This document shows, piece by piece, positions 9,801 to 53,085 of a stretch of 64,000 nt of DNA. Source of the stretch: an uncultured Olleya sp. (GTDB lineage Bacteria; Bacteroidota; Bacteroidia; Flavobacteriales; Flavobacteriaceae); contig CANNFD010000011.1 in the NCBI GenBank assembly GCA_947503885.1, positions 9,310 through 73,309 on the forward strand. Reading direction: 5' to 3'. The position numbers were made by a program, and so were the translations under genes. The notes beneath the pieces were generated by a model, which did not search any database, was not told where the DNA came from, and saw nothing but the letters and a program-made list of their open reading frames with translations. The stretch's first letter is position 1. Every line of letters begins with the position of its first letter.

Positions 9801-9964
9801 TTATTATAGCTTTTGGCTATTAGCGGTTTGCCTCTAGCACTTAATGTTGTGATTTGTTATTGTATAACTTAAGTACTAAAATACAAATTGTATCCTGTTT
9901 AAAAAAGCTGAAACTATAGTAATTTTATATTTCAAAATATGGTTTTACTATAACGCTAGGTTTT

Positions 9965-10053
9965 GCGTTAGCGATAATAGTAGCATCCTTTTTTTGCTGC
10001 CATATATGGCGAAAAAAGATATAACGGATAGCGCGACCCTTGTGGTAACGCCC
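9965..10053 (-). ncRNA. structured intergenic element resembling the Flavo-1 RNA / Flavobacteriaceae interspersed repeat
   Basis: Minus strand GGGCGTTACCACAAGGGTCGCGCTATCCG...AAAAGGATGCTACTATTATCGCTAACGC; terminal GCGTTA/TAACGC pairing plus an inner hairpin; family assignment is from memory, not a search. Confidence 0.55.
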
Positions 10054-43831: not shown

Positions 43832-44746
43832 ATGAAAAAAGAAAACAACATATTAAAATGGTTTAATAACGAATTATCTAATCAAGAGTTAGAGGATTTA
43901 AAACAAACCGAAAACCTAGATGTTTTAGAAAAAATAAAACATTATAGTGCCCAAATGGAAGCGCCTAAAGTTGATGCCCAAAAAGCTTTAGCTGCCTTTA
44001 AACAAAAACAACATACCAAATCAACCCCTAAAGTAATTAGCCTAAACTTTAAAACCTTTTTTAAAGTTGCAGCAATGTTGGTTGTTATGCTTGGCGCATC
44101 TTACTTTGCGTTTTTTAATGACACCAAAACATTTACAACACAAATCGCAGAAACTGAAACTTTAATTTTACCTGATAATTCTGAAGTTATTTTAAATGCT
44201 AAATCTAAATTAACCTACAATAAAAAAACATGGGACGATAAGCGTGATTTAGAATTAGAAGGAGAAGCCTTTTTTAAAGTTAGTAAAGGACAAAAGTTTA
44301 CTGTTACTACAGACGCTGGTGTAGTACAAGTGTTAGGAACCCAATTTAACGTTAAAGAACGTGACAATTACTTTGAAGTAAATTGCTTTGAAGGCTTAGT
44401 AAGTGTAACCTACAACAATCAAACCGTGAAGCTAAAAAAAGGCAAAGGGTATAAAGTTGTTGATGGTATTATTGAACTTACAGAAAGCAATACTATTAAG
44501 GCGCCATCTTGGTTACAAGATGAAAGCAGCTTTACTAAAATAGCTCTAAAACAAGTGATTGCAGAACTAGAACTCCAATATAAAGTCAAAATTAATTTTG
44601 AAAATATTGATGATTCTCAATTATTTACCGGTACTTTTACACATAGTAACTTAAATACTGCATTACAGTCTGTTACTATACCTTTAAAAATTAGTTATAA
44701 AATTGAGAAGAATATAGTTACATTTTATAAATATGAAGAGAACTAG
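43832..44746 (+). CDS. fecR: FecR family anti-sigma factor
   Basis: One TM helix, LPDNSEVILNA.S.L, LEGEAFFKV.KG, VQVLGTQFNV. Confidence 0.92.
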   Translation: MKKENNILKWFNNELSNQELEDLKQTENLDVLEKIKHYSAQMEAPKVDAQKALAAFKQKQHTKSTPKVISLNFKTFFKVAAMLVVMLGASYFAFFNDTKTFTTQIAETETLILPDNSEVILNAKSKLTYNKKTWDDKRDLELEGEAFFKVSKGQKFTVTTDAGVVQVLGTQFNVKERDNYFEVNCFEGLVSVTYNNQTVKLKKGKGYKVVDGIIELTESNTIKAPSWLQDESSFTKIALKQVIAELELQYKVKINFENIDDSQLFTGTFTHSNLNTALQSVTIPLKISYKIEKNIVTFYKYEEN

Positions 44747-47270
44747 ATGGATCGTTTGTTTATTGTTTTTTATAACCAACATTTGCATTAGTCAAACTAC
44801 TACCGATAAAATACCACTAACAGATTATATTAAAACTATTGAAGCAGAATTTGATGTGAAATTCTCCTATGCTGTAGATGATGTTGCTAATATTTTAATT
44901 GATAAACCCACTACTTCATTAAACTTAAAAGAGACCCTTAACTACCTAAACTCTAAAACGTTTTTAAACTTTAAAACTATCGACAACCGTTATATAACGG
45001 TTTCGGTGTTAGAAAAAACAATATCTATTTGTGGTATTGTGCTTTCAGAACACGAACCCCTTTTAGGTGCTTCTGTAATAATATCTGGGACAACAAAAGG
45101 CACAAGTACTAATTACGATGGACAGTTTCAACTAAATAATATTCCGTTAAACACAACCCTTTCAATTTCTTATTTAGGATTTGAAACCCAAACGATTAGC
45201 GCCAAGTATTTTTTTAAGGACGATCAAACTTGCAAACCCTTAACCTTAACAGAAAATAGCGAACAACTTAACGAGGTATTAATCACTAAGTTTCTTACTA
45301 CAGGTTTACAAAAACTAGCTGATGGTAGCATCGTTTTAAACACAGAGCAGTTTGGTATTTTACCGGGACTGATCGAGCCTGACATCCTATTATCTATCCA
45401 AGCACTACCAGGTGTAGAAAGTGTTAATGAAAGTGTTGCAAATATTAATGTTAGAGGTGGTACTAACGACCAAAACCTAATGTTATGGGATGACATAAAA
45501 ATGTACCATTCCGGACACTTTTTTGGACTAATATCGGCTTACAATCCTAATTTAACTAATAAGGTTATTGTTACCAAAAACGGGACCAGCAGCCAATATA
45601 GCGATGGGGTTTCTAGCACCATTAACATGTACACCAAAGACAAAATATCTAATACATTTGCGGGCGGAGTTGGTGTTAATTTAATAAGCGCAGATGCCTT
45701 TTTAGAAGTACCGATTTCTAAAAAATTAGAATTACATATCTCCGGAAGACGCTCTATCACAGATGGGATTTCCACACCTACTTACGAGAATTATTTTGAA
45801 AGAAGTTTTCAGGATAGTGATATCAATACTAATGCTTCAGGCAATAATACAAACACCACATCAGACTTTGTGTTTTATGATTATACTGCAAAGCTACTTT
45901 TTGACTTAAATAAAAATCATAAGTTTAGAGCTAATGTGATTGGTATAAATAACAATTTAGATTATACCGAAAGTGTTTTAAATAACAACAATACAACCAC
46001 CTCAAAAGCAAGTAATTTATCACAAACCAATTTGGGTTATGGTGCTAATTGGAACGCACAATGGACCGACAAGTTTAGCACTACTTTATCCGGAAGCTAC
46101 TCGCAATACAATGTGGATGCTACAGATTTAAAAGTAGAAACCAACCAAGGATTAACACAAGCAAACGAGGTTTTAGAAACAGGCGCACAATTTAAAACTA
46201 AATATAACGTCAATAATAACATGTCCGTTTTAACGGGTTATCAATTTGAAGAAATCGGTATATTAAACCAAACCACTGTTACTGCACCTGCATACGAGCG
46301 TACTAAAAAAGACGTCTTGCTTAATCACGCTGCATTTACAGAAGTAGAATATAATAATAAAAGCACCTATTTTAGACTTGGGGTTAGAGCTAATTATTTT
46401 CAAAAATTTAATCAGCTAATTATTGAGCCTAGAGTAAATATTAGACAAAAGCTATCCCGACAATTGGCTTTAAAACTAGAAGGCGAATTTAAAAATCAGT
46501 CTGTAACACAAATTGTAGATTTTCAGGATGATTTTTTAGGTGTCGAAAACAGACGTTGGATTTTAGCCAATAATACCACAATACCAATATCAACTAGTAA
46601 GCAAGCCTCTTTTGGTGTCGATTTTAAACAAAGCAATTTTAATCTTGACGTTACTGGTTTTTACAAAGTTGTCGATGGGATTACTGCCAGAAACCAAGGG
46701 TTTTATAACAATTTTCAATACCTTAATGCTACAGGAAATTATACCGCAAAAGGCGTCGAGTTTTTAGCCAAAAACACCTCAGAAAAATTAAGTACCTGGT
46801 TAAGTTATGCATATAGTATAAACGAGTACAAATTTGAAACTTTTAACCCTTCTGTTTTTCCTAATAATGTAGATATTAGACACTCTGTCTCCCTAGCATT
46901 TAACTATGCGTTATTTAAAAATTTCCAACTGTCTGTAGGCGGAGTTTGGCATTCTGGACAACCCTATACTAGACCTTTAGAAGGTAACGAAACAGTAGAA
47001 ATTGACGACAACTACTTTGTTAATTATGACCAACCAAACAGTCAAAATGTAGATCCTTTTTTAAGAGTTGACACCTCTATTAGCTACGATATTAACCTGT
47101 CTAACAATTCAAAATTAACTTTTAGAGCTGGTGTTAGAAACCTAACTAACGAAGACAATATCATTAACAAGTATTTTAAAGTTGACCCAGAAGACACCAA
47201 CAAGACCGTTGAGATTAACAATAAGTCTTTAGGATTTACACCAAATGCTAGTTTGCGTGTTAGTTTTTAA
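44733..47270 (+). CDS. TonB-dependent receptor with N-terminal signalling and CarboxypepD_reg-like domains
   Basis: GTSTNYDGQF.L, LPGV...NVRGGTNDQNL plug, terminal LRVSF. Confidence 0.9.
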   Translation: MKRTRWIVCLLFFITNICISQTTTDKIPLTDYIKTIEAEFDVKFSYAVDDVANILIDKPTTSLNLKETLNYLNSKTFLNFKTIDNRYITVSVLEKTISICGIVLSEHEPLLGASVIISGTTKGTSTNYDGQFQLNNIPLNTTLSISYLGFETQTISAKYFFKDDQTCKPLTLTENSEQLNEVLITKFLTTGLQKLADGSIVLNTEQFGILPGLIEPDILLSIQALPGVESVNESVANINVRGGTNDQNLMLWDDIKMYHSGHFFGLISAYNPNLTNKVIVTKNGTSSQYSDGVSSTINMYTKDKISNTFAGGVGVNLISADAFLEVPISKKLELHISGRRSITDGISTPTYENYFERSFQDSDINTNASGNNTNTTSDFVFYDYTAKLLFDLNKNHKFRANVIGINNNLDYTESVLNNNNTTTSKASNLSQTNLGYGANWNAQWTDKFSTTLSGSYSQYNVDATDLKVETNQGLTQANEVLETGAQFKTKYNVNNNMSVLTGYQFEEIGILNQTTVTAPAYERTKKDVLLNHAAFTEVEYNNKSTYFRLGVRANYFQKFNQLIIEPRVNIRQKLSRQLALKLEGEFKNQSVTQIVDFQDDFLGVENRRWILANNTTIPISTSKQASFGVDFKQSNFNLDVTGFYKVVDGITARNQGFYNNFQYLNATGNYTAKGVEFLAKNTSEKLSTWLSYAYSINEYKFETFNPSVFPNNVDIRHSVSLAFNYALFKNFQLSVGGVWHSGQPYTRPLEGNETVEIDDNYFVNYDQPNSQNVDPFLRVDTSISYDINLSNNSKLTFRAGVRNLTNEDNIINKYFKVDPEDTNKTVEINNKSLGFTPNASLRVSF

Positions 47271-47290
47271 TGGACTTCTCTAATTAAAGT

Positions 47291-47380
47291 TACGTCGTTG
47301 TACAAATCTATATTTTTACAAAAACCGACTAACAGAATTGGACAATTGACAAATAAATCAAACGTTTTTTATCAGTGACA
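47291..47380 (+). repeat. degenerate copy R0 of the ~100-bp promoter-like repeat
   Basis: TACGTCGTTGTAC...ACAAAAACCGACTAAC...TTGGACAATTGAC...TTTTTTATCA aligns with 50245-50332. Confidence 0.55.
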
Positions 47381-47534
47381 CAATTAACAAACTAGCCAAT
47401 TACTATTCAATACAAACCATAACTTACACACCTTCAAACACTAAAAGTCATTTTTTTTGTGTCGCAGAGCCCAAAACCTACATACGTGCTAAACAACTAC
47501 TCCTTTTAGGAAGATTATTTAACATAAAGCTAAT

Positions 47535-47600
47535 TTATAGATAGTCTAACAAAAACAAATTAGATTTGTTGAACGATTTGCAAAAAACATGAAACAATTT
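47535..47600 (+). repeat. degenerate copy R1 of the ~100-bp repeat, with a perfect TAGATTTG -7 element at 47561-47568
   Basis: TATAGATAGTCTAACAAAAAC...TTTGTTGAACGATTTGCAAAAAACATGAAAC. Confidence 0.6.
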
Positions 47601-47671
47601 TATATTTTTTAATACATTTGATGCAAATTTTTAAAAAAGAACACAAACAATAATCTATATATTTAATTTTA

Positions 47672-48415
47672 ATGAAAACTTACATTTCCCTTTTTATTTT
47701 TAGCATTTTTACCAATATGATGATAGCCCAAGTAGGAATTGGTACTACAGAGCCAAAAGCCGCATTGGACATTACTTCAGAAGATTCAGGTTTATTAATT
47801 CCTCGTGTTGCACTTAGCGATATAACGGATAGCACCACGGTTAGGACACCATCGGATTCCGATCCTGACGTAGAGGTTAGCACATTGGTTTATAATGATG
47901 GGACCGGAGGCTTACAACCTGCTGGTTTTTATTATTGGGAAGGTAGCAAGTGGATTCAATTTGCATCAACCGAGAAGCAAGTACATGTAGGTAAATTCAA
48001 GATAACAGCTTCTGGGATCACTACTATTGCTGGATTACCATTTAAACCAAAAAGTATCGAGTTTAAAGCATATGCTAATATTGAAGATTACAATTTAAAT
48101 AGCGATAATGGTGTAAATAACAATAACTCAGGATTACAAAACTACTTTGGATACATGCAAGGTTATGCTCAAAACACTTCTGGTACTATTGAGCAGCAAG
48201 TAATAGCAGGTGGTGCAAGTGCCAATTCTGTAAATGACCATTCACGTTACGCTTCGGACACTAATTGTATCGGAGTACGTTATGCAAACCAAAACGGAGA
48301 TTCGTTAGGATTAACAAATGCTTCACTTACCTCTTTTAACGCAGATGGTTTTACATTAAATGTAAGCAATTTTACTGATGGCTTAGTTGTAATTTATACC
48401 GCTTATAAGTATTAA
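47672..48415 (+). CDS. secreted hypothetical protein (Flavobacteriaceae QVGIGT family)
   Basis: Signal peptide, then QVGIGTTEPKAALDITS..SGLLIPRVAL and GFYYWEGSKW. Confidence 0.8.
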   Translation: MKTYISLFIFSIFTNMMIAQVGIGTTEPKAALDITSEDSGLLIPRVALSDITDSTTVRTPSDSDPDVEVSTLVYNDGTGGLQPAGFYYWEGSKWIQFASTEKQVHVGKFKITASGITTIAGLPFKPKSIEFKAYANIEDYNLNSDNGVNNNNSGLQNYFGYMQGYAQNTSGTIEQQVIAGGASANSVNDHSRYASDTNCIGVRYANQNGDSLGLTNASLTSFNADGFTLNVSNFTDGLVVIYTAYKY

Positions 48416-48532
48416 TAATATAAGTAAGCCTAAATTAAAATGTTTTTTTAATAAGCACATCTTAAAATGTAAAACAAAAGCATTATATAATAGTTAGCAT
48501 TATGCTTAAAAATTAATGTTATATAACATAAA

Positions 48533-48592
48533 AACACAAACAAAAAACGCTTTCAAATATCTGAAGGCGTTTTTTAGTATAATAAAGTTTAA
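48533..48592. terminator. copy A of the argS terminator/3' region
   Basis: AACACAAACAAAAAACGCTTTCAAATATCTGAAGGCGTTTTTTAGTATAATAAAGTTTAA, near-identical to 51241-51298. Confidence 0.8.
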
Positions 48593-48895
48593 AACTGAAA
48601 AACGTTTTGTCCAACCACAACTTTTAAAGAATTATCATCTCCGGAAAAAACACCTGCACCTTTCCGGTTAGACAAACTCGTGTAAGAGGGATAGTTTTAC
48701 ACTGTACTTTATCAATTTAGTCATTTAAAAACTAATTGTAATAAGGTAAAAAAGAACCCCTCCCAACCAACTTATGATTAATTCCTAGAGTTAAAATCAA
48801 AAAAAATCAGAAAATATGTATACATTTGATAGAGCTATAATCGATTGAATATCAACAACTAACACTAGCATTAATTGAGATTAAAATAAAATATT

Positions 48896-49261
48896 ATGAA
48901 ACATTTAAAATCCAATTTAATACTGACTTTATTTATTTTTAGCTTTTTGGTTTGTCAATCCTGTAAAAGTGATGATGATTCTCAAGCTCTGGTTGAAATT
49001 TGTAATGACGGAATAGACAATGATGGTGATGGGTTTACAGATTGTGAGGATGCTGACTGTGTTTCAGCCTCAAATTGTGTAATAGAAATTTGTAACGACG
49101 GTATTGACAATGACGGTGATGGGTTTACAGATTGTGATGATGATGATTGTGATTCAGACTCCAACTGTGGTGTTGAAATTTGTAACGACGGTATTGACAA
49201 TGATGGGGATGGATTTACAGATTGTGATGATGATGACTGTACTGCTGATCCAAGTTGTTAA
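48896..49261 (+). CDS. small lipoprotein made of three Cys/Asp-rich putative metal-binding repeats (MopE-like)
   Basis: Lipobox CQSC-KSDDD; 3 x EICNDGIDNDGDGFTDC(E/D)D(A/D)DC. Confidence 0.85.
   Translation: MKHLKSNLILTLFIFSFLVCQSCKSDDDSQALVEICNDGIDNDGDGFTDCEDADCVSASNCVIEICNDGIDNDGDGFTDCDDDDCDSDSNCGVEICNDGIDNDGDGFTDCDDDDCTADPSC
48995..49258 (+). repeat. three tandem 90-nt coding repeats
   Basis: GAAATTTGTAA starts at 48995, 49085 and 49175. Confidence 0.9.
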
Positions 49262-49426
49262 CATAGCCAATACAAAGTTTAAAAACAATTGCTGTTTTTT
49301 ACATATATAATGGCGTATCAAGTTTGCTACGTCTAAATTTTATATATAAAACCCTAGCACACAAACCTACAACGTCACTTTGACTAAAGCTTGTTTTACT
49401 AATAGCCCTTTTTAATATAATATAAT

Positions 49427-49473
49427 AACGCTTTCAAATACTTGAAGGCGTTTTTAGTATAGTAACGTTTTAA
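49427..49473. terminator. copy B of the argS terminator/3' region
   Basis: AACGCTTTCAAATACTTGAAGGCGTTTTTAGTATAGTAACGTTTTAA. Confidence 0.78.
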
Positions 49474-49519
49474 TCTTAAAATGTTTTATTCTGCTACAAC
49501 TATCTACTAGGTTGTGTAA

Positions 49520-49620
49520 AAAAATTTACGTAGTTCTACGTATAGTTTATCTAACATTAAACAACTAATTTCGTTGACCGATTGATAAAAACATTGAAAC
49601 GATTTTTTATCATCGAAATA
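49520..49620 (+). repeat. copy R2 of the ~100-bp promoter-like repeat
   Basis: TACGTAGTTCTAC...TAATTTCGTTGACCGATTGATAAAAACATTGAA...TTTTTTATCATCGAAATA. Confidence 0.85.
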
Positions 49621-49659
49621 ATTACTCGGTAAATTATAAATTGAAATAAAATATAAAAT

Positions 49660-49869
49660 ATGACATTGTTAATAGTAGTAATAGTAGTTGGATTGATTTG
49701 GTATGGAATAAAAATTGGATTTAATATTGGTTGTATAATCGGAGGAATCATTGGAGTATTTATTGGAGGGAGTTTGGGTGTAGCTGGTGGAGGCGGAGCA
49801 TCAAACGGGTGGATTATTTTCGGCGCTATCGGATTTGTTGTTGGGGGATTAATTGCAAATAAAAATTAA
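49660..49869 (+). CDS. small glycine-rich membrane protein
   Basis: 69 aa, hydrophobic GxxxG-rich helices, ATG after an A/T-rich leader. Confidence 0.65.
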   Translation: MTLLIVVIVVGLIWYGIKIGFNIGCIIGGIIGVFIGGSLGVAGGGGASNGWIIFGAIGFVVGGLIANKN

Positions 49870-50044
49870 TATAAAAAATATTATAGGAATAGTAATTCAA
49901 TTTGGATTAGCGAATTATAAAAGAAGTTCAGAGGAATTATTTGAAAATGGCTCAGAATTTATGACAAATCCTACTGTTATAGGAGTTTTGACTCTTTTGA
50001 GTTGGGTTATAATGGTAATCGGAATCGTAAGTTTTTTCTATTAA
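49853..50044 (+). pseudogene. probable fragment of a membrane-protein gene
   Basis: 63 aa, overlaps the upstream gene by 17 nt with a poor N-terminus; hydrophobic C-terminal helix; followed by stop-riddled sequence. Confidence 0.4.
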
Positions 50045-50124
50045 TAAATATTTATGAGTTAACTCGGAATTGAACAATTAAAGCGGAAGAATTAAAACTT
50101 GTTCATTCAGATGTCTCGTAACAG

Positions 50125-50196
50125 TTTGTAACAAAATTTATATAATTTATTGCTAGTTCTATCCTATTTACAAAAGTCCTCGCAGATTTACTATTT
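50125..50196 (+). mobile_element. decayed left half of an attC-like Flavobacteriaceae cassette repeat
   Basis: TTTGTAACAAAATTTATATAATTTATTGCTAGTTCTATCCTATTTACAAAAGTCCTCGCAGATTT; resembles a repeat family I recall from Flavobacteriaceae; right arm absent. Confidence 0.45.
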
Positions 50197-50239
50197 AACC
50201 ACTTTACATATTTACATCTTTAAAAAGGGTATTTATAAC

Positions 50240-50340
50240 AAATCTACGTAGTTGTACTTATAGATTTCTTAACAAAAATCTACTAACTTCGTTGAACGAT
50301 TGATAAAAAACATTGAAGCTTTTTTTTTATCATCGAAATA
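50240..50340 (+). repeat. copy R3 of the ~100-bp promoter-like repeat
   Basis: TACGTAGTTGTAC...TAACTTCGTTGAACGATTGATAAAAAACATTGAA...TTTTTTATCATCGAAATA. Confidence 0.85.
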
Positions 50341-50381
50341 TTGGCAATAATTAAAAAACAAAATAAAACTGCACATTAAAA

Positions 50382-50735
50382 ATGACAAATGACTATCAAG
50401 ATTACAAAATACTTTTAAACAACTACACTTCTTCTTACATTAGTGAATATGGAACAAAAAGTGCTAAAAAGACCATAGAAACAATTCAAAAATCAAAACA
50501 CTCGATTAACTTATTGCATCAAAGCGCAACAAAAGGTTTTGTGCCAACTGTCGGTGATTTTAATTCTTTTGTCCTTAGTAATTTATCGTTGAGCTTTGCA
50601 AAAAAAGCAAAAATTAGATTTGCTTCAATAATCTTATTTAATCATTGGCATAATGATGTTAATGTTGAATTACAACTTTTATCAGAATATGAAGTTATTT
50701 CTTTGTTTAACAAAATCCTTGAAAAAACAATATAA
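50382..50735 (+). CDS. hypothetical protein (cassette ORF 1)
   Basis: 117 aa, ATG after an A-rich leader, no recognisable motif. Confidence 0.7.
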   Translation: MTNDYQDYKILLNNYTSSYISEYGTKSAKKTIETIQKSKHSINLLHQSATKGFVPTVGDFNSFVLSNLSLSFAKKAKIRFASIILFNHWHNDVNVELQLLSEYEVISLFNKILEKTI

Positions 50736-50799
50736 AATTATTTAAAAATAGCCTACTATTTAAAATCAGTAGATTAACTCAAATACTTAGAAAATAATT

Positions 50800-51051
50800 A
50801 TGGATATAAATGAATTGAAAACAGGAATTATCGATGGAATGTCAAAAATTGTAGTTGATGATTTCAGTAAAAGTGAATATAAAGGAACACCTCTTGAAAG
50901 TATGGCTATCATTGAATCATTAAATTACTCATCAAAATGGTACACAAATTGGCTATTGGAAAATAAAATTGATTTTAAGATTTCTGAGGAACAAATTGAT
51001 GATATAATAAAAGATTGTTATACAAAGACGTATGATAAATTTTTAGAATAA
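50800..51051 (+). CDS. hypothetical acidic protein (cassette ORF 2)
   Basis: 83 aa, no recognisable motif. Confidence 0.7.
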   Translation: MDINELKTGIIDGMSKIVVDDFSKSEYKGTPLESMAIIESLNYSSKWYTNWLLENKIDFKISEEQIDDIIKDCYTKTYDKFLE

Positions 51052-51087
51052 TTATATAGTTCTACAGTAATGGTAACCGTATAAAAC

Positions 51088-51216
51088 TATTGCCAACAAC
51101 GTATATAAAAAATAGCGATTTTAGTGCTTAAACGAAAGATAAATAATAAAATAAAGGTCTGTAATAAACCGAAAAGTTAGTGTTTAAAATCCGCTACTTT
51201 TCATATACCAGACCTT
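51088..51216 (+). mobile_element. attC-like imperfect inverted repeat
   Basis: Arms 51101-51123 and 51185-51208: two A/C mismatches (G:T on the bottom strand) and one extrahelical base; GCCAAC at the left end. Confidence 0.65.
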
Positions 51217-51240
51217 TCAACGAAAAGTCAAAATCTATCT

Positions 51241-51298
51241 AACACAAAAAAAAACGCTTTCAATAACTTGAAAGCGTTTTTAGTATAATAAAGTTTAA
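51241..51298. terminator. argS terminator (copy C, native position)
   Basis: AAAACGCTTTCAA-TAAC-TTGAAAGCGTTTT, 2 nt from the argS stop codon. Confidence 0.85.
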
Positions 51299-51300
51299 GC

Positions 51301-53085
51301 TTACATACGTTCTGGCACTGCCACACCTAATAAGCTAAAGGCATTTTTTATTGTTGTTGCTACTGCTTTAGACAGTTGTACCCTAAACACAATTTCGTTT
51401 TGCGTGTCTGCGCCAAGTATAGATACGTTTTGGTAAAAACTATTAAAGGCTTTTACTAGGTCGTAGGTATAATTAGCAATTAACGCTGGACTGTGGTTAT
51501 TGGCTGCTTGTTGTATTACTTCTGGAAACAGTTGTAATTGTTTTATTAGCTCGCGCTCCTTATCATCCAAAGCCACTTGATCTGCGCTTAAAGTTATTGC
51601 AGGGTCTATATTAGCTTTGCGTAATATGGATTGGATTCTGGCATAGGTATACTGTATAAAAGGTCCTGTATTACCCTGAAAATCGATAGAGTCTTTTGGA
51701 TCAAATAAGATTCGTTTTTTAGGGTCTACTTTTAAAATATAATATTTTAAAGCGCCTAAACCTATGGTTTGATATAAGTCTTGCTTTTCTTGGTCTGTGT
51801 AACCGTCCAGTTTACCAAGCTCTTCAGATATGGTTTGTGCTGTGTCTGCCATTTCTACAATTAAATCGTCAGCATCTACAACAGTCCCTTCTCTACTTTT
51901 CATTTTTCCGGAAGGTAAATCTACCATCCCATAACTTAAATGAAACAGGTTTTTTGCCCAATCAAAGCCTAGTTTTTTAATAATTAAAAACAAGACCTGA
52001 AAATGGTATTCTTGCTCGTTACCAACCGTATAAACCATACCACCAACATCTGGATAATCTTTTACACGTTGGATTGCTGTACCAATATCTTGGGTCATGT
52101 ACACTGCTGTACCGTCAGATCGTAGGACAATTTTCTCGTCCAAACCATCTTCGGTCAAATCGCACCATACCGAGCCATCTTCTTTTTTAAAGAACACGCC
52201 AGATTTTAAACCTTCGGCAACAAACTCTTTACCTAAAAGGTAAGTTTGACTTTCATAATATAAATTATCAAAATCTACACCTAGGCTTTTATAGGTTTGG
52301 TCAAACCCTTTATACACCCAACCGTTCATGGTTTGCCAAAGTGCAACAACGTCCTTATCTCCTGCTTCCCATTGTTGTAACATTTGTTGTGCTGCAACCA
52401 AAATTGGTGCTTCTTTTTTAGCGTCGTCTTCGGTTTTACCCTCAGCCATTAAAGCTGCTATTTCCTTTTTGTATTCTTGGTCAAATTTAACGTAGTAATT
52501 ACCTACTAATTTATCTCCTTTTAATCCTGTAGATTCCGGAGTTTCGTTATTGCCAAAACGTTGCCAAGCTAACATACTTTTACAAATATGAATCCCTCGG
52601 TCGTTAATAATCTGTGTTTTATATACTTTTTTACCTGACGCCTTTAATATTTCGGCAACGCTATACCCTAATAAATTATTACGGATATGCCCAAGGTGTA
52701 ATGGTTTGTTGGTGTTAGGCGAAGAATACTCCACCATAATGGCTTTATTTTCCGCTTTAGCGTCCACAAAACCAAATTTTTCTTCGGCTTTAATACTATT
52801 AAAATAGTTTACAAAATAAGAGGCTTCAATCTCAAGATTTAAAAACCCTTTAACCACGTTAAACGCTTTTACCTCTGTAACATTGGCTACTAAATAATCC
52901 CCAATAGCTTCACCAATTTGCATTGGATTACCTTTAACAACCCGTAACATTGGAAAAACTACTACAGTAATATCTCCAGCAAATTCTTTACGAGTAGCTT
53001 GGAATTCTACAGTTTCTAAATCTGCACTGTAAATTGAATTTACAGCTTGTTTCACGAATTTTTCTAAGGTGTTTTGAAGACTCAT
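51301..53085 (-). CDS. argS: arginine--tRNA ligase
   Basis: EYSSPNTNKPLHLGHIRN (HIGH), GKMKSREG, YIQYTYARI; TATATTTG promoter at 53107-53114. Confidence 0.97.
   Translation of the reverse strand: MSLQNTLEKFVKQAVNSIYSADLETVEFQATRKEFAGDITVVVFPMLRVVKGNPMQIGEAIGDYLVANVTEVKAFNVVKGFLNLEIEASYFVNYFNSIKAEEKFGFVDAKAENKAIMVEYSSPNTNKPLHLGHIRNNLLGYSVAEILKASGKKVYKTQIINDRGIHICKSMLAWQRFGNNETPESTGLKGDKLVGNYYVKFDQEYKKEIAALMAEGKTEDDAKKEAPILVAAQQMLQQWEAGDKDVVALWQTMNGWVYKGFDQTYKSLGVDFDNLYYESQTYLLGKEFVAEGLKSGVFFKKEDGSVWCDLTEDGLDEKIVLRSDGTAVYMTQDIGTAIQRVKDYPDVGGMVYTVGNEQEYHFQVLFLIIKKLGFDWAKNLFHLSYGMVDLPSGKMKSREGTVVDADDLIVEMADTAQTISEELGKLDGYTDQEKQDLYQTIGLGALKYYILKVDPKKRILFDPKDSIDFQGNTGPFIQYTYARIQSILRKANIDPAITLSADQVALDDKERELIKQLQLFPEVIQQAANNHSPALIANYTYDLVKAFNSFYQNVSILGADTQNEIVFRVQLSKAVATTIKNAFSLLGVAVPERM

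Follow-up and report, generated by a model that had tools for sequence, protein, structure and literature searches.

Elements that accrete in tandem at the 3′ ends of genes leave direct repeats of their attachment (att) sites, as seen for the cis-mobilizable elements (CIMEs) together with ICEs (integrative and conjugative elements) at fda of Streptococcus thermophilus, for SGI1 at trmE and for GIsul2 at guaA. GIsul2 appears in PMC9376610. Arrays of small captured genes are found in integrons and in the recombinase-associated arrays of Bacteroidales known as rAID-1 (Ross et al., 10.1101/471110), with canonical integrons almost unreported in Bacteroidota (IntegronFinder 2.0, PMC9024848). Here we describe a locus in a marine Olleya (Flavobacteriaceae) that shares features with both kinds of system. 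It lies at the 3′ end of argS, the gene for arginine--tRNA ligase, whose terminator is present in three copies. The window, the whole stretch of DNA that was analysed, comprises 64,000 nt and corresponds to C11:9310-73309 of assembly G000 (3.04 Mb, 43 contigs). Positions below are those of the window unless a contig is named; G, C and L numbers are our own handles for genomes, contigs and loci.

The three copies, T1 (48533/48543-48592), T2 (49424-49473) and T3 (51241/51250-51298), all lie on the plus strand, with a spacing of 881 nt from T1 to T2 and 1826 nt from T2 to T3. They share the hairpin AACGCTTTCAA-N4-TTGAA(A/G)GCGTTTTT followed by the tail AGTATA(A/G)TAA(A/C)GTTT. This non-hairpin tail is 16-18 nt long; 17 nt are identical between T1 and T3 (AGTATAATAAAGTTTAA), T2 agrees at 15 of 18 positions, and some 10 nt to the left of the hairpin are also common to T1 and T3. 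A strict pattern of the hairpin plus the start of the tail has two exact matches in the window, T1 differing from it by one additional T, and 100 shuffled versions of the window gave no match. Across the whole assembly, regular-expression and blastn searches of all 43 contigs place hairpin plus tail at these three sites only. The coordinates, the shuffles and the genome-wide search thus bear out the original prediction of three copies in the same orientation. They also remove the explanation that it had named as fatal, a generic terminator repeat: a family of the repetitive extragenic palindrome (REP) type would have many unlinked copies in the genome, and the 3.04 Mb hold three linked ones.

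The hairpin alone is not diagnostic, because its bare pattern recurs in unrelated taxa: we found it at 23 loci in genome contigs, many of them from such taxa. Stems of the form xCTTCAA-loop-TTGAAGx, lacking the tail, also stand at unrelated terminators of G000 (C4:23189, C7:46527 and C8:77286). By sequence comparison it is the tail, not the hairpin, that shows common descent. A search for terminator plus tail in metagenome contigs gave no match, a search for the hairpin pattern in viral contigs gave none either, and Rfam returned nothing meaningful in the region. All three copies read AGTATA where other Olleya read TATATA or AATATA. They are 87-88% alike and roughly equally distant from the argS terminators of other species; a derived stem change, GAAGGCG, is present in T1 and T2 and absent from T3. 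Two other identities for the copies were considered and rejected. An end of an IS200/IS605-type insertion sequence or of a palindrome-associated transposable element (PATE) is ruled out, as congeners have this copy for their conserved native argS terminator, and a mobile pseudo-cassette with G|TT as its boundary left and right is ruled out by the unrelated left-hand spacers of the three hairpins.

The argS gene encodes an intact protein of 594 aa on the minus strand (51301-53085), and T3 is therefore the argS terminator, ending 2 nt before the stop codon. Identity between the copies had been predicted to stop there. Exact identity does end at that point, but a weak in-register similarity continues for 32 nt further, opposite the argS stop and its last ~9 codons. 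We fixed the alignment at the end of the tail, banded it to ±3 nt and compared it with 20,000 random genomic 32-mers. In this test the 32 nt to the right of the tail match the argS end for T1 (p=0.0011) and for T2 (p=0.0011), and the two flanks match each other (p=0.002). Unanchored local alignments of the flanks past the tail gave no significant score; the argS remnants thus rest on one test design, as only the anchored, banded alignment reached significance. Where the T1 and T2 flanks disagree, T3 agrees with one of them, as expected if T1 and T2 had decayed independently from an original under coding constraint. The in-register similarity points, therefore, to internal copies that are decayed duplicates of the argS 3′ end, and the repeated unit is, by these alignments, ~80-90 nt long with the argS end included. 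Together with the shared tail and the uniqueness in the genome, these pseudo-argS remnants uphold the earlier claim that the copies duplicate the argS 3′ region and are not independent terminators.

In these extended limits the distal copy T1 spans 48533-48624, with the A-run, hairpin and T-run at 48540-48575, the tail AGTATAATAAAGTTTAA at 48576-48592 and the decayed argS-3′-like sequence at 48593-48624. The middle copy T2 spans 49424-49505, with the hairpin at 49424-49455 preceded by a weak A-run, the tail AGTATAGTAACGTTTTAA at 49456-49473 and the decayed argS-like part at 49474-49505. T3, the resident bidirectional terminator, spans 51241-51330: hairpin at 51249-51281, tail at 51282-51298, a 2-nt spacer, then the argS stop and last ~9 codons at 51301-51330. 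Other Olleya species have its orthologue as their single terminator.

The predicted folds show the stable stem-loop and U-tract at a gene 3′ end that mark an intrinsic (Rho-independent) terminator. For T1, T2 and T3 they reach -16.7, -13.8 and -16.1 kcal/mol on the plus strand and -13.5, -9.5 and -16.5 kcal/mol on the minus strand, with z-scores of -3.5 to -8. A terminator scan called T3 for the minus strand and T2 for the plus; on the minus strand no U-tract accompanies T2. The A-to-G change in the stem of T1 and T2 gives a G.U pair in plus-strand RNA and a C.A mismatch in minus-strand RNA. As the minus-strand folds are weaker in T1 and T2 than in T3, these predictions fit internal copies that would have kept terminator function on the plus strand only. 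T3 resembles the bidirectional intrinsic terminators of convergent genes: its 14-bp stem, with an A-run on one side and a T-run on the other, folds at about -16 kcal/mol in either strand, and it stands between argS and plus-strand genes. Unlike an ordinary terminator, the argS one is triplicated together with a 17-nt non-hairpin tail and upstream coding remnants.

The copies separate three plus-strand units, each ending in one of them. Recurrent in these units is D2, an element of ~105 nt that carries the palindrome TACGTAGTTCTACGTA and a hairpin made of A/T only; the gap between argS and the TonB-dependent receptor gene on its 3′ side holds four D2 copies. Unit 1 (47271-48532) consists of two D2 (47283-47390 and 47521-47630) and an open reading frame (ORF) for a secreted protein of 247 aa (47672-48415), and ends in T1. 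Unit 2, the 0.9-kb module A (48625-49423), carries a 121-aa acidic double-disulfide-repeat lipoprotein (ORF121, 48896-49261) and an attC-like repeat of type 3, truncated at its 3′ side (49272-49380), before T2. Unit 3, the 1.8-kb module B (49506-51240), was resolved by sequence comparison into a first D2 (49519-49625), a pair of small membrane ORFs (49660-50044), a repeat of type 4 (50047-50134), a type-1 attC present as its left half (50139-50195), a second D2 (50237-50340) and a cassette (50341-51217) with ORF117, ORF83 and a type-2 attC (51088-51217); a conserved TTCAACGAAA spacer (51216-51226) then leads to T3. None of the six gap ORFs is a recombinase by the ORF list and family searches, and Pfam, NCBIfam and PADLOC gave a sole match among the module ORFs, acid_disulf_rpt on ORF121. 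That ORF contains three tandem 90-nt (30-aa) acidic double-disulfide repeats (NF033662; 48995-49264). A repeat related to these was seen on another contig of G000 (C7:68854-68924).

Module B has a G+C content of 24-28% (49400-51200), compared with 33-38% in argS and in the TonB-dependent receptor gene on the other side of the gap. Its cassette is 85% identical over 50341-51124 to a sequence in another genus (G107; locus L049, C3 9782-10553). The match begins exactly at 50341, the predicted cassette boundary, with ACG|TTGGCAA in G107 and ATA|TTGGCAA in the window, and the cassette's own attC begins TTGCCAAC. The comparison shows a foreign origin for at least one cassette. In G107 a recombinase homologue, 39% identical to the one on C6 of G000 described below, lies 6.5 kb from the shared cassette.

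The attC-like repeats belong to several families. Type 1, ~150 nt long, is present about ten times in G000, for the most part close to the ends of contigs, and terminates in ...YAAC and GTTG...; further type-1 copies and partial type-2 copies lie at C8:643-5789, C13:54904-55837, C1:497833-503834, C23:1798 and C19:3847. Of two consecutive type-1 elements on C13, one ends GTTGCCA and the next begins TGGCAAC, its complement. The type-2 family is widespread in other genera (consensus ...AACAACGTATATAAAAAATAGCGG...CCGCTACTTTTCATATACAAGACCGTTG), and types 3 and 4 are two more repeat families in the gap. Ends of the R″/R′ type (AAC/GTT) are present in the type 1-3 elements of the gap and genome. A complete ~150-nt type-1 attC follows one small co-directional ORF, itself directly downstream of a tyrosine recombinase gene on C6 (246641-248520 in all). 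The recombinase (C6:246641-247831, 396 aa) is XerD/IntI-like, scoring 221 bits against NF040815, ‘tyrosine recombinase/integron integrase’ (cut-off 220), and 203 bits against TIGR02249. To judge by its sequence, this part of C6 is a rAID/integron-like platform with a single cassette.

D2 is present at the argS locus in most Olleya, with copies in G002, G005, G006, G010, L087-L089 and L095, and cassettes join it at its 3′ end. The apparently unoccupied D2 of G002 ends AAACG|TTCAACGAAA. In G000 this TTCAACGAAA stands behind the last cassette's attC, and in L095 TTTCAACGC stands behind the cargo. D2 thus behaves like an attI site, and by these alignments the ancestral order was D2, TTCAACG..., about 30 nt, terminator and argS.

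The left border of the locus is conserved: a TonB-dependent receptor gene (44733-47270, plus strand; identified as an ORF and by family search), preceded by genes for an extracytoplasmic function (ECF) sigma factor and FecR. The gap between the receptor and argS ranges from 7 bp to 9.2 kb in Olleya, a hypervariable insertion hotspot: 7 bp with no terminator in G008, 1.7 kb in G004, 1.8 kb in G010, 3.2 kb in G001, 4.0 kb in G000, 8.6 kb in G006 and 9.2 kb in G005. A single argS-adjacent terminator is present in ten other Olleya species or loci (G001, G003, G004, G010, L086-L088, L090, L095 and L097), so the empty, single-copy site exists, in other species rather than in isolates of the same one. 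When the argS protein was looked up by exact match, no further assembly of this species was on record. In 11 Olleya species genomes every hairpin core lies either at the argS locus or no more than ~16 kb away. Two outlying hairpins (G001 and G006, 6-11 kb off) were rejected as further copies, since their extended stems differ and they look like independent terminators.

One other clade (G005, G006 and L089) has a second copy, directly after a gene for a cyclic nucleotide monophosphate (cNMP)-binding protein, with a tail match of p about 0.009. Behind this internal copy the order is D2, ~150 nt on, then variable cargo and the argS copy. Cargo of anti-phage type between D2 and the argS terminator differs among L087, L088, L089, L095, G005 and G006. 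The slot holds AAA_15 with DUF4435 (PARIS-like), Abi_2, an OLD-like TOPRIM ATPase or AAA_15/DUF2813 in sister strains, and further a 360-aa ORF beside a 196-aa ORF, or a 1106-aa ORF. Metagenome contigs with a 94%-identical argS (L092, L093 and L094) stop 13-115 nt after argS, at the terminator, as expected for a heterogeneous population. The end of L093 is an assembly artefact, a copy of the contig's own sequence folded back around the hairpin.

We favour, with even confidence, an origin by serial accretion: recombination inside the terminator segment, carried out by a recombinase in trans or by RecA, would have added the blocks, and the internal copies would have been kept as plus-strand terminators. 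T1-T3 would be paralogues of one ~90-nt segment made up of the last ~10 argS codons, the stop, the ~17-nt tail and the bidirectional terminator. T3, with its orthologous left flank (TTCAACGAAA...), would be the resident copy, and T1 and T2 would have been displaced as gene blocks joined the argS 3′ end. Each joining was most likely a Campbell-type insertion of circular DNA that brought a segment copy along, the crossover falling within the segment and being made by a trans-acting tyrosine recombinase or by RecA, for which 50-90 bp of homology would be available. This would duplicate the segment and leave argS intact. The blocks themselves would be integron/rAID-like capture units, composed of a D2 attI-like element, one or more cassettes, an attC-like repeat and a terminator, and the internal copies would survive since plus-strand transcription of the captured genes still ends there. 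A ~90-nt duplication that includes the argS end and leaves argS intact fits insertion by crossover inside that segment, and the inserts are indeed bounded, as by att sites, by same-orientation repeats, one of them over the 3′ end of an intact gene. The mode of recombination, the succession of events and any mobility at the present day are inferences. As for the scars of at least two successive insertions in the original prediction, the separate acquisition of the intervening blocks stands, given the hypervariable gap, the low G+C of module B and the cassette shared with another genus; a target-duplicating integrase as their agent finds no support, there being no integrase in or next to the modules.

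Several observations weigh against serial accretion. No recombinase ORF lies in the gap, where an element that integrates at an att site would carry its integrase; all seven tyrosine recombinases of G000 are on other contigs, and no element bearing an attP was found in the viral or metagenome contigs searched. The cassette junctions (D2|TT and the R′ end of attC) do not coincide with the terminator copies, and the module interiors were therefore visibly built by a different recombination system. With a likeness of only 87-88%, the copies stand about as far apart as they do from the argS terminators of other species, which puts donor and event order beyond their resolution. Lastly, the stem G common to T1 and T2 and absent from T3 misfits simple serial insertion at the argS-proximal copy unless gene conversion or parallel mutation is added; it suggests that T1 and T2 may derive from one internal copy, the second duplication having started there rather than at the argS-proximal copy, or that gene conversion has acted among the copies.

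An origin in situ is possible, though we lean away from it: tandem duplication of the whole unit, from D2 through the terminator and ~30 nt of argS, by unequal crossing-over or replication error, after which cassette turnover replaced the contents. This requires no integrase, and D2 lies 46 nt after T2 and about 150 nt after the internal copy of G005, G006 and L089, which is the junction expected; indeed, it accounts for the adjacency of terminator and D2 about as well as serial accretion does, one more point against the latter. The lineage-specific AGTATA common to all three copies and the turnover between D2 and terminator evident among O. marilimosa-type strains also speak for it. However, the units share nothing beyond the ~50-90 nt, unit 2 has no D2 at all, the D2 copies are 72-82% alike and no closer to one another than to the D2 of other species, and two duplications with complete replacement of the contents would be needed. 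Import is an unlikely source. Each internal copy and its module would have been acquired together from another Olleya lineage: homology would have joined one end of a donor stretch of cassette, terminator and argS 3′ end, and an illegitimate event the other, with a foreign argS end and terminator remaining in the gap. In keeping with this, T1 and T2 are as similar to the argS terminators of other species (81-82%) as to T3 (74-78%), their loop sequences equal those of other Olleya lineages, and the T2 tail GTTTTAATCTTA agrees with the O. namhaensis type. But fifty-five nt yield almost no phylogenetic resolution, the G000-specific AGTATA is in all three copies, and both pseudo-argS remnants stop at about the same point, which two illegitimate joins would hardly produce.

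The terminator unit could itself be a recombination site, attC-like or secondary, of an XerD/IntI-like recombinase, with modules A and B as ‘macro-cassettes’. G|TT does stand at the same tail position in the three copies (AAAG|TTTAA, AACG|TTTTAA) with identity decaying just behind it, an integron-integrase-like recombinase of G000 has a cassette and an attC next to it, and cassettes occur away from that platform, beside argS. Yet the unit lacks what defines an integron attC: its stem of 10-14 bp is perfect and closes on a 4-nt loop, its arms to the nearest AAC/GTT differ in length (5 versus 11 nt), and it has neither extrahelical bases nor R″/R′ complementarity, unlike the local attC-like families. 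With the cassette junctions elsewhere, the terminator copies are therefore not cassette recombination sites. Similarity also runs past G|TT into the argS codons, and exchange of the integron type does not duplicate its target, so that we regard this possibility as very improbable. Convergence on independent terminators, or a generic terminator repeat family, is hardly credible: the like stems on C4, C7 and C8 and the 23 bare-hairpin loci would speak for it, but those stems have no tail, and the 17-nt identical tail with an in-register argS-like flank occurs, in the assembled genome, at three linked sites only.

Serial accretion could be carried further, to a proposal that we hold to be speculative and rather doubtful. 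The argS 3′ end and terminator would be the attachment site of a small integrase-less gene-capture platform of the integron/rAID kind, composed of D2 as attI-like promoter element, cassettes ending in attC-like repeats and the terminator, which moves and stacks in tandem as a unit in Olleya, is served in trans by the distant XerD/IntI-like recombinase and works as a one-slot anti-phage exchange point in sister strains.

As in CIME/ICE accretion, the direct repeats at argS overlap the 3′ end of a housekeeping gene that stays intact, decaying copies of that end lie distal to the gene, and there are several tandem blocks, the internal ones lacking an integrase as CIMEs do. Unlike in those systems, the array has no integrase anywhere, its blocks are very short (0.9 and 1.8 kb), its repeats reach 87-88% identity instead of being near-identical, and the cargo consists of integron-like cassettes. 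Likeness to integrons, to clusters of attC sites lacking integron-integrases (CALINs) and to rAID-1 lies in the XerD/IntI-like recombinase with its co-directional cassette and repeated ~150-nt attC-like element, in the complementary R′/R″ ends of consecutive elements, in cassettes with TTRRRY-like starts, in the low G+C of the arrays and in the defence/immunity-type cargo of sister strains. Unlike integrons and rAID-1, the array has terminator copies that are not attC-like, no recombinase beside it, three or four attC-like families within 4 kb and a D2 that recurs inside it.

Taken alone, the triplication is a modest local variation on a pattern already known, and the surrounding cassette system is the more notable. 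The repeats are exact seams along which the assembly of an insertion hotspot beside an essential gene can be read, and they yield three predicted deletion or circle junctions. Because the argS slot holds different anti-phage genes in sister Olleya, with contents that have integron-like boundaries, it offers a compact natural system for integron/rAID-like cassette capture in Bacteroidota. Elsewhere in the window, a Flavo-1 RNA motif was detected at 9960-10042 (Rfam RF01705, 53 bits; gathering score 42).

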